A model generated the notes under the pieces. The model was given only the letters and a program-made list of their open reading frames with translations, searched no databases and was not told the origin of the DNA. The translations under genes and the position numbers were made by a program. Of a stretch of DNA of 64,000 nt, positions 17,882 to 57,095 are shown piece by piece (within the stretch, counting starts at the first letter, position 1; each line of letters starts with the position of its first letter). Origin of the DNA: a virus; UHGV virus genome UHGV-1353888; one strand, written 5' to 3'.

Positions 17882-18689
17882 TCTATTAACCTTTCCTGAA
17901 CCCATTGAGGGAAACTCTGGCAATGGGATTCTTTCCAAATGGTATAATCAGTATGCCTCTCCCCTAACCCCCGACAACTGGCTATGGTATAATACTGGTG
18001 GTCCTACGCTTGAAGGAATGCCTACCCCAGGGGGGATGGCTTGCTCAATTCAGCAAGGAGCCATGTATAGGCCGGGTGTGAGGTGTTCCAACATAGTAGA
18101 TGCTTGGAAGATATACAACGCTTTGGGGAATATTAACACACCTGCTCTCGCCGCATCTACTGGTTCTACAGGATGGAAGACCAATATTAACGCGGAGAAA
18201 AGACAAAGAATTTTTAATCCTCGTGTTTGGAGTGTGTGGAATCCCGGCTCTCCCCAGCACGTCATGGCAGGATACGAAATCCCCACTTGGCCTGTTGGGT
18301 TTCCCCCGGGTGTAACAGGGGACCTAGCCGCTACTCTTGAATCAGACCAGACAGTCGTGCGCTACAACCTGCTTGGCCCCTGGTACATTGAGAAAGATAC
18401 AGGTGCAGTATATCTTGATTTTACCATATCCCTTGGGGGAACCTATGTTCGAAGCATTGGAGGACAACGTCAAACCCTTCTCATTAAGGCCAAGATGGGA
18501 AAGACACAATATGTCAGGTCCGGAACAAACCCATCTGCCGTAAGGAATATTACATGGAGTACTACCATAGCTGGTATTCCAGTAGATTGCCTCGCTACAT
18601 ATTGGTGTTGGAGCCCTATTACTGTCCCAGTACCCTTACTCACTGTTGTTGAGAATTGGTTTAAAGGTATTCAATTCGATTCATTATGA
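17874..18689 (+). CDS. Hypothetical protein
   Basis: 271 aa, overlapping the upstream stop (ATGCCTAG). Confidence 0.4.
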   Translation: MPSLLTFPEPIEGNSGNGILSKWYNQYASPLTPDNWLWYNTGGPTLEGMPTPGGMACSIQQGAMYRPGVRCSNIVDAWKIYNALGNINTPALAASTGSTGWKTNINAEKRQRIFNPRVWSVWNPGSPQHVMAGYEIPTWPVGFPPGVTGDLAATLESDQTVVRYNLLGPWYIEKDTGAVYLDFTISLGGTYVRSIGGQRQTLLIKAKMGKTQYVRSGTNPSAVRNITWSTTIAGIPVDCLATYWCWSPITVPVPLLTVVENWFKGIQFDSL

Positions 18690-19417: not shown

Positions 19418-19530
19418 GGACATATTGGATGTAGCAGAAAATCTGAGAGAGTATATTCAAAACCAACCCACTAGAAGTTATTCCTATTACCGGGAACAGT
19501 GGGAGGAAAGTATCAAACAAAAGGAAAACT

Positions 19531-19761
19531 ATGAATACTAAAGACCCAACGCGGGAGAAACGGTTCGTACATATCTTGGATGAATTCGTTGAAGTAGACC
19601 CCTACATTACTATCCGTTTAAACGTAGGTCCTCATAAAGGAGAACTAAGATATGTCCCTAATCCAGATTATTTCCATGCTGAATATATCCAGGAGGGTAG
19701 GGAATACAAGAAGAGAAAGAAATACTTACCTAGACAAACCTCTAACCCAAAAACGCTATAA
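19531..19761 (+). CDS. Small basic protein, copy 1
   Basis: 76 aa: MNTKDPTREKRFVHILDEF...KKRKKYLPRQTSNPKTL. Lies in duplication unit 1. Confidence 0.45.
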   Translation: MNTKDPTREKRFVHILDEFVEVDPYITIRLNVGPHKGELRYVPNPDYFHAEYIQEGREYKKRKKYLPRQTSNPKTL

Positions 19762-19782
19762 CCTCTTAGAACTTATTAGAAC

Positions 19783-20041
19783 CATGGAAAAAGAAAACAA
19801 AAGGAAAACTATGAATACTAAAGACCCAACGCGGGAGAAACGGTTCGTACATATCTTGGATGAATTCGTTGAAGTAGACCCCTACATTACTATCCGTTTA
19901 AACGTAGGTCCTCATAAAGGAGAACTAAGATATGTCCCTAATCCAGATTATTTCCATGCTGAATATATCCAGGAGGGTAGGGAATACAAGAAGAGAAAGA
20001 AATACTTACCTAGACAAACCTCTAACCCAAAAACGCTATAA
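19783..20041 (+). CDS. Duplicate copy 2 of the small basic protein, fused to the first 6 codons (MEKENK) of the downstream gene
   Basis: The ATG at 19783 is in frame with copy 2: MEKENK-RKT-MNTKDP...PKTL. Confidence 0.35.
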
Positions 20042-20062
20042 CCTCTTAGAACTTATTAGAAC

Positions 20063-20519
20063 CATGGAAAAAGAAAACAAACAATATGTCGAAGCCATCA
20101 CGAAAGAAATCCGTTATCCCTACGGTCCCGGTATCCAGAAACTCGACGACGGGTCGTTCAAAATCACTGTATGTCGTTCTGAATGTAGGGCTGTTGCTAA
20201 GGCTGATAACCTTGAAGTGGCTAAGGCCATCCAAGACAAACTGAAAACTGATTCAGGATATTTCCTTTCTTGCGTATCTAGTATTCTCCACAAGGAGGTT
20301 ACGAAGATTCGGAACCAGGATATTGAATCCAAGTCAGCCTCCATTATACGATTGGTCAATGAGATTATGGGACTTGTGGAAGAAGGGAGGATGCTATTTC
20401 AACAAGCTGTGTCCCAAGGCATTGAGGGAGACGTTCTCACCCGAGCCTATTCGGGGCTTGCTGAGTTATATCCCGGGAATCCGGAAGTACCCCTTCTCCA
20501 TCTAATCTCTGAGGATTAA
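20063..20519 (+). CDS. Hypothetical protein
   Basis: MEKENKQYVEAITKE...; its first 18 nt are included in the duplicated unit. Confidence 0.45.
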
Positions 20520-22751: not shown

Positions 22752-22794
22752 TATATTGAGGGTAGCCAATTTCCCCTCCTTTCTCTAAAACTAT

Positions 22795-42851: not shown

Positions 42852-43300
42852 TTTCGGTGTGCTTGTAAAATGGCTAGTTCGTGGGATTCAAAGTATGAGG
42901 TATTTACGTGGGAACATATTTCTCCATCAGTGATTTCAGTCCATGCCAACTCATAACCGCGGGCCTTGTCGAGAGCTTCTTCCATTGCTTCTTTGTCTTC
43001 CCCAAACTCACTGGGTTTATCTATGTATTCCTTTGAGTTTCGTATTATCTCAATGGCAGTCCATAAGGAATCAGTGATGGTAAAGTAACGAAGTTCCTGG
43101 TCGAAATCCATCTTTCCAAATCCGCTATAGAGAGCAACTACGTAGTTTCCTGGAAGTCCCGCGGCTCTGGTCAACAGGAAAGTAATCTTCGGTTCGCCTG
43201 GAATGGGGGCCTCTTCTACTTCCTGCTCCAGGCTGGGCTTAAACTGAATGTCTAGTTCAATCATCTTTGAGCAGTGGGGACACGGTATTTGATTTGTCAT
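42848..43300 (-). CDS. Hypothetical protein with an N-terminal CxxC
   Basis: 150 aa; CPHCSKMIELD at the N-terminus. Confidence 0.4.
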   Translation of the reverse strand: MTNQIPCPHCSKMIELDIQFKPSLEQEVEEAPIPGEPKITFLLTRAAGLPGNYVVALYSGFGKMDFDQELRYFTITDSLWTAIEIIRNSKEYIDKPSEFGEDKEAMEEALDKARGYELAWTEITDGEICSHVNTSYFESHELAILQAHRK

Positions 43301-50476: not shown

Positions 50477-50637
50477 TTTTCTATGTTTTCTATTTTAGTT
50501 TGTTGGTTGGTTGCGGGGTTGTGTTCCCCTTACGCAATCCTTTATATTATATTAGAGGGGAAACGCAAGGGAAATGTTCATGCCTTGTGTCATACTTAAC
50601 TGTTAAGGAGTTATGAAAATGTTCCACGTGGAACATT
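50477..50637 (-). promoter_or_regulatory. Repeated promoter-leader module, copy A
   Basis: Perfect 22-bp palindrome AAATGTTCCACGTGGAACATTT, then GTATGACACAAGG, then a TGCGTAAGGGGAACACAACCCC-type leader. Confidence 0.5.
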
Positions 50638-56869: not shown

Positions 56870-57095
56870 GTCTTCCCGTTCGTGTAGGGAGTAACGGGCA
56901 TTTCGTCCTTTTCGTTCGTGTAGGGAGTAACGGGCATTTCGTTCTTCCGTCCTTCTGGTCCATGTAGTTCGATTAGGGCGTGTAGTGCGTATAGCTCCAT
57001 CCTTTCAGTCCCTATAGTTCGATTAGGGCATTCCGTTCACTTCGTCCTTTAAGTCCGTATAGTGCGTTTAGGGCATTCCGTTCACTTCGAGCGTT
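56870..57095. repeat. Iteron array. Two 36-bp-period direct repeats (CGTTCGTGTAGGGAGTAACGGGCATTTCG) and two roughly 45-bp repeats (TAGTTCGATTAGGGCATTCCGTTCACTTCG), all with a TAGGG(C/A) core.
   Basis: Direct repeats at 56877-56905 and 56913-56941, at 56975-56989 and 57016-57030, and at 57027-57045 and 57071-57089. Inverted GCCCTAAA copies at 56510, 56693 and 56857, and GCCCTAA(A/T) at 58228 and 58649. Confidence 0.7.

Follow-up and report, generated by a model that had tools for sequence, protein, structure and literature searches.

A 280-nt segment that encodes a complete small gene, which we denote gene B, stands twice in direct tandem in the phage genome UHGV-1353888, and the two copies are identical to the last base. 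We consider this arrangement to be probably a genuine and very recent tandem duplication that arose in vivo in the phage genome. Judged by its sequence, the event is a microhomology-mediated tandem duplication, which is a type of mutation known from phages as well as from other genomes and calls for no new mechanism or element. In the following, the window denotes the whole 64,000-nt stretch of this genome that was analysed, and all positions refer to it.

Direct string comparison shows identity at a period of 280 nt, with no mismatch, over positions 19515−20081, a span of 567 nt that equals two units of 280 nt plus 7 nt. On the same span Tandem Repeats Finder reports a period of 280, 2.0 copies, 100% matches and a score of 1134, and a repeat search of the window returns two head-to-tail copies of 280 nt with 100% identity and a spacing of 280; no other long perfect repeat was found by this search in the 64-kb window. 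We place copy 1 of the unit at 19515−19794 and copy 2 at 19795−20074, both on the plus strand and directly abutting, with the same base at 280 of 280 positions. A perfect repeat of this length cannot have originated by chance. The first-pass annotation, a reading of the letters of this DNA, had described 19521−19800 and 19801−20080 as identical base for base; both intervals lie inside the identity span, and that register is as valid as ours.

The edges of the unit are marked by a short direct repeat. The heptamer AAACAAA is found on the plus strand at 19515−19521 (left edge), at 19795−19801 (the novel junction, where a single heptamer is kept between the two units) and at 20075−20081 (right edge), giving a junction microhomology of 7 nt. 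A microhomology had already been noticed at this place, but its length had been put at 6 nt (AAACAA). The left and right heptamers occupy the same places in single-copy relatives. Across the junction the sequence runs ...CCATGGAAAAAGAAAACAAAAGGAAAACTATGAAT..., with the junction string GAAAAAGAAAACAAAAGGAAAACTATGAAT; the reciprocal deletion between the outer pair of heptamers would leave a junction reading GTATCAAACAAACAATATG. The pair of copies was also considered as the template and variable repeats of a diversity-generating retroelement, an assignment that we rejected because repeats of that kind are imperfect and differ specifically at adenines, whereas the copies seen here agree at all 280 positions and abut one another.

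The unit lies in a densely packed plus-strand block of open reading frames with the order A−orf56−B−C. Gene A (18686−19417, plus strand, 243 aa) is a conserved upstream neighbour. It is followed by orf56 (19371−19541, plus strand), a small ORF conserved in the relatives, which overlaps the end of gene A and the start of gene B; only its 3' end falls within the unit, and it is unaffected by the duplication. In the register 19515−19794 the unit comprises the last 27 nt of orf56, the whole of gene B, the 22-nt spacer between B and C and the first 11 nt of gene C. The first copy of gene B (19531−19761, plus strand; 76 aa, MNTKDPTREK...PKTL) is thus found in its native context, and gene C (20064−20519, plus strand; 151 aa, MEKENKQYVEAI...) is intact and is still preceded by its native sequence for at least 250 nt. 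The unit had been described as ending 18 nt into gene C. With the ATG of gene C at 20064 an end at 20080 gives 17 nt, and it is the identity up to 20081 that takes in all 18.

The duplication therefore breaks no ORF, and gene B is complete in both units. In the second unit it can be read from two in-frame ATGs. Its own start codon opens a 76-aa frame at 19811−20041 on the plus strand (sequence and ORF list), in front of which 16 nt of native upstream sequence are left. The other ATG, at 19784, is a copy of the start of gene C and shares with the genuine one the same upstream context of at least 250 nt. Translation from it gives an 85-aa fusion ORF (19784−20041, plus strand; MEKENKRKTMNTK...PKTL, also written MEKENKRKTMNTKDPT...PKTL), which opens with six codons from the start of C, passes through three linker codons and continues into the second copy of B, to yield MEKENKRKT-B. 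This bears out the earlier reading that the second copy of the gene is in frame with the MEKENK start.

The start of gene C was settled by comparison with the relatives. A longer form of C, beginning at ATG 19932 (195 aa; the equivalent position in copy 1 is 19652, where it would give a 129-aa fusion) and preceded by AAGGAG, was examined and rejected, since a 17-nt deletion present in three relatives breaks its frame and leaves C intact, and since substitutions that are silent in the frame of B are non-synonymous in the overlapping longer-C frame. The AAGGAG was given no weight, because the genome shows no usage of Shine-Dalgarno motifs (see below). The longer form has entered public gene calls, among them P0007 and P0008 (L011, 4001−4582; L012, 4001−4588), which present C as a protein of 193 or 195 aa that runs out of frame over gene B and omit B altogether. 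The comparison of frames indicates that this annotation is a mis-call and that the real genes are B and the 151-aa C. As for the function of C, Pfam yielded just a sub-threshold match to DUF5770. PDB matches that would make it a relative of designer PPR proteins were dismissed; no stretch was above threshold by itself, and the matches probably reflect the repeated modules of those proteins.

Gene B was found once, and never twice, in related genomes. We identified, in metagenomic assemblies of 10 other samples, 10 related contigs that are 90−99% identical to the window, namely UViG_3300045988_146009 (IMG/VR, 68.8 kb), ERZ28637174 (69.1 kb), ERZ28574984 (72.9 kb), SRR22041727 (37 kb), ERZ1755984, ERR1620312, SRR30129121, SRR13348875, SRR28055693 and SRR27680614, each of which carries the unit, and hence one B, a single time. 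The first-pass annotation had proposed looking for the duplication in related isolates, and a second copy is present in none of the 10. All 10 have the order A−orf56−B−C, and in 9 of them AAACAAA stands on both sides of the unit; the exception is L007, the most divergent, which has GAACAAA on the left. Where B has 76 aa, as in four contigs, the heptamers are spaced by exactly 280 nt (a distance measured in three of the four); in the other allele groups the spacing differs through indels inside B. Apart from the duplication, a single SNP at codon 2 of B (N versus K) is all that separates the window from its two closest contigs over positions ~19101−20900, and the closest relatives are 99−100% identical over the flanks. 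These results indicate that the single copy is the ancestral state, and that the duplication is very young and private to this genome.

Searches of wider collections returned no other carrier. GenBank phages gave no DNA match to positions 18600−21100 in either near or distant mode, and no tblastn match for the large terminase subunit (TerL) or for B. The fused architecture, whether of 85 or of 129 aa, was not returned from 5.8 billion clusters and 1.8 billion representatives; the pattern of the junction between the units was not found in IMG/VR, and an exact look-up of B was likewise empty. Since neither a relative nor a database protein carries the duplication, the event rests on one sequence. 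The window also contains a 3284-aa ORF (28586−38440, plus strand) that has no PHROG match. Together with the lack of a tblastn match for TerL in GenBank phages, this ORF places the phage in a deep-branching, uncultivated lineage whose genomes measure ~69−73 kb.

The ancestral sequence offers a simple route to the observed one. With two AAACAAA heptamers 280 nt apart, the left one 16 nt upstream of the ATG of B and the right one in codons 4−6 of C, the heptamers would mispair during replication or recombination. The product X-U-U-Y (U being the unit, X and Y its flanks), in which one heptamer is left at the junction, could then arise by strand slippage, by template switching, or by an unequal exchange that involves sister or concatemeric genomes. 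The locus displays all the sequence-level features of a microhomology-mediated tandem duplication, that is, the repeat, its parental form, the flanking heptamers and a complete gene in each unit. The ORFs point to a gene that could be expressed from each unit, as the second copy has two in-frame ATGs in unstructured leaders. The earlier proposal of a tandem duplication with junction microhomology and an intact first copy thus agrees with the structure seen in the sequence.

To appreciate the weight of the 7-nt homology, we simulated duplications with arbitrary breakpoints in the window after collapsing it to a single unit, and scored the homology at their junctions. Arbitrary breakpoints yielded at least 7 nt of homology at a frequency of ~5−7 × 10−4, both genome-wide and in the local A-rich context. 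Junction microhomology of this kind distinguishes a molecular event from a join made in silico, and does not distinguish recombination in vivo from template switching during PCR or MDA. An expectation of ~6 × 10−4 makes an untrimmed circular overlap, or any other arbitrary in-silico join, unlikely. A 7-nt match is moreover too short to mislead an assembler, so that the sequenced material must have included molecules with the U-U junction.

These considerations bear directly on the possibility that the repeat is an artefact and that the true consensus genome has a single copy. Such a record could stem from a de Bruijn graph in which rare reads, chimeric or from a minority, caused a loop to be walked twice, from template switching at the heptamers in vitro (PCR or MDA), or from a circular contig whose terminal overlap was left untrimmed and which was rotated afterwards. 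An artefact would also give perfectly identical copies, it would account for the lack of a second copy in 10 of 10 related contigs, and the window begins ~500 nt upstream of the gene for the terminase large subunit, which is compatible with a re-oriented circularised record. Yet the breakpoints are not those of an arbitrary join, which would reach such homology only ~6 × 10−4 of the time; 7 nt is far below what misleads k-mer or overlap assemblers; one type of in vitro chimera would rarely dominate an assembly path; and the breakpoints spare every ORF, as they would in a viable genome. A length of 280 nt is also not known to be typical of assembler k-mer overlaps. We therefore regard an artefact as unlikely, with a chance that is still too large to neglect. 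Between the two origins that the first-pass annotation had named, a very recent duplication and an assembly artefact, the single-copy relatives, the 7-nt homology with its expectation of ~6 × 10−4 and an anatomy like that of known T4 duplications favour the former and weaken the latter.

A genuine duplication need not be fixed. In one form of the preferred reading it is real but polymorphic, being carried by only part of the phages in the sample and present in some of them perhaps in more than two copies, as in a gene accordion. Tandem duplications in T4 are unstable and vary in copy number within populations (PMC9391042). Assemblies from short reads would not be able to count perfect 280-nt units. 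We hold this sub-case to be possible, and somewhat less doubtful than an artefact. A further reading, in which the unit is a direct terminal repeat and the record a concatenated or rotated linear genome (X-U joined to U-Y), seems to us highly improbable. T7-like and N4-like podoviruses have short terminal repeats in a size range that includes 280 nt, and in assemblies of the relatives a repeat of this kind would be collapsed into a single copy, as is seen. Against this, the unit consists of coding sequence in a dense late operon, with no intergenic or promoter-like region; physical ends at this place would split that operon; the formation of a terminal repeat would not be expected to involve 7 nt of homology at the two boundaries; and 10 contigs, short ones included, run unbroken through the edges of the unit.

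A very recent duplication in vivo, which we favour, would have close counterparts in phage T4. The amplifications of dmd-tifA in T4 have as their boundaries microhomologies of 6−10 bp, found on either side of the normal locus, and a single one is retained between the repeats (PMC9391042). The cases in T4 comprise the dmd-tifA locus, amplified under toxIN selection, and the rII duplications (PMC9391042); amplification promoted by SegB is known in T6 (PMC13096335). The likeness to the locus described here is considerable, with head-to-tail, perfectly identical repeats of a segment that holds a whole small gene, functional flanking genes, and boundaries at short direct repeats (6−10 bp in T4, 7 bp here) of which one is left at the junction. 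The differences lie in setting and scale. Laboratory selection under a known defence system produced the T4 amplifications, which span kilobases in several copies and come with compensating deletions elsewhere, whereas here two 280-nt copies are seen in the assembled sequence of an uncultivated, unrelated phage from the environment.

The wider concept is that of the gene accordion of poxviruses, in which a host-interaction gene (K3L of vaccinia virus) transiently gains tandem copies that are later followed by point mutation and collapse. The concept of tandem gain as a fast adaptive route is the same; the poxvirus case differs in concerning a eukaryotic virus, larger units and many copies, and in that a benefit was demonstrated there. 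A third comparison comes from the window itself, where six abutting paralogous genes of 111−120 aa form a tandem array at 43297−45382 on the minus strand. Their nucleotide identity is 60−77%, the starts of neighbouring copies are ~350−360 nt apart, and the proteins share the consensus start M.ITFTIYRT..N.FRV.IFKED. The genes of the array are apparently translationally coupled, in what looks like an early-gene block. Like the duplication of B, this array is the product of tandem duplication of a small gene; it is, however, old and diverged, with clean separate genes, while the duplication of B shows zero divergence and a fused start. The old array implies that tandem duplications were fixed earlier in this lineage.

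Which protein the second copy of B would deliver depends on how translation is initiated in this phage. In the region 1−39115 of the window, a properly placed Shine-Dalgarno motif was found at 0 of 28 plus-strand starts outside the unit, one of which has an AGGA 18 nt upstream; the ATG of B is alone among the starts examined in having an AAGGA nearby. Plus-strand leaders in the same region are A/T-rich. The lack of Shine-Dalgarno motifs suggests a host with initiation independent of them, for example one of the Bacteroidota. Both start regions of the second copy are predicted to be unstructured (−2.6 and −2.2 kcal/mol per 91 nt). Since Shine-Dalgarno motifs are not used, the starts are unstructured, and the upstream context is the same as for the genuine gene C, the ATG at 19784 should initiate translation and give MEKENKRKT-B. 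The ATG at 19811 may be used as well, so that the second copy can produce the 85-aa protein, the native 76-aa protein, or both.

The additional nine residues would probably be harmless. The N-terminus of B differs by indels among its homologues, and residues 1−10 have a pLDDT below 50 in the predicted structure; an end that varies in length and has no predicted order can probably accommodate the extension, and B is probably not inactivated by it. Both copies of B and gene C seem to belong to one late plus-strand operon. The sole strong terminator-like hairpin on the plus strand is found at 22793−22828, after an endolysin-like gene. A duplication that lies inside a single late operon would be expected to roughly double the net dosage of B.

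B itself was not assigned to any known family or fold. No match to it was found in Pfam (E ≤ 0.01), PHROGs or PADLOC, and a sequence profile run against the PDB returned just noise, with a cytochrome P450 at an E-value of 0.4. Its AlphaFold2 model is weak (pLDDT 60) and consists of five beta strands and a short helix with disordered ends; Foldseek found nothing against the PDB at E ≤ 0.001, the best E-value being ~1. A motif of 18−33 residues in length (YxPNPDYF) matches the Big_9/Cadherin_5 repeats of giant adhesins, at the level of the motif only. Membership of B in Big_9/Cadherin_5 was considered and rejected, as there is neither a Pfam match at E ≤ 0.01 nor a significant fold match. An exhaustive profile search with B yielded one further homologue (P0003), and beyond motif-level matches the family consists only of alleles in these contigs; scans of JGI metagenomes and GTDB genomes for the family gave nothing. 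By these searches B is confined to this phage lineage. The gene had been described as encoding a small basic protein, which holds for the protein overall (pI 9.4); the basic character comes solely from the C-terminal tail of 19 residues, and the beta-rich core is acidic.

Sequence evolution nevertheless points to a functional protein. The dN/dS of B is ~0.2, a rough figure in that the alignment of the last 11 codons falls past the 17-nt deletion of L003. This ratio, together with the changes among relatives that are silent in the frame of B, argues that B is a real gene under purifying selection. At the same time B is the most divergent gene in its neighbourhood. Between the window and the ERZ28637174 clade the identity of the B protein is 64−72%, compared with 95−98% for its neighbours, and with 10−27 differences per 100 nt against a background of 0−7 the gene is a divergence hot spot. 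There are at least three types of B allele, one of which is a mosaic. Indels in the relatives include the 17-nt deletion, which removes the basic tail, and a 12-nt deletion at the N-terminal end, so that among eleven genomes three kinds of structural variant are seen at B, namely the duplication, the tail-truncating 17-nt deletion and N-terminal indels.

Such a pattern of variation would be typical of accessory or host-interaction genes. One may speculate further that B is a fast-evolving host-interaction or counter-defence gene, and that its duplication marks the beginning of a gene-dosage accordion in a natural population; we put this forward as a long shot. If it were true, B would become a candidate for an anti-defence factor, and the AAACAAA pair would be a hot spot at which amplification recurs. 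The duplication has implications that do not depend on this idea. If real, it is a natural example of the microhomology-mediated duplication by which T4, in laboratory evolution, was shown to get past host defences quickly; the phage belongs to a deep-branching lineage that has no cultured member, and the orphan gene B is flagged for attention. If it is an artefact the result has practical value, as the record needs correction. The finding would gain in value if reads confirm the duplication and B proves to be a counter-defence or host-range factor.

Several other features of the window were recorded in the course of this analysis. A second divergence hot spot lies at 18401−18689, the C-terminal end of a 271-aa gene (17874−18689), with 15−37 differences per 100 nt among relatives whose identity is otherwise 95−99%. 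The dS of this gene is 0.23−0.40, compared with 0.03−0.12 in most of its neighbours, and its C-terminal end may be a host-recognition module.

The remaining observations concern repeated elements in the second half of the window. An intergenic element with the core GGGGTTGTGTTCCCCTTACGCAATCC (families D7 and D9) recurs between minus-strand genes at 50495−50617, 52019−52066, 52955−53046 and 55412−55459, with one pair of 92 nt that is 92% identical; the element is a candidate for a promoter or terminator specific to the phage. At positions 56872−57089 two sets of tandem repeats lie next to each other, with units of 36 nt and 45 nt that are 87−97% identical, just downstream of a short plus-strand ORF (56228−56719) that follows a block of minus-strand genes. 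These repeats are iteron-like, and may represent a replication origin or a regulatory region.
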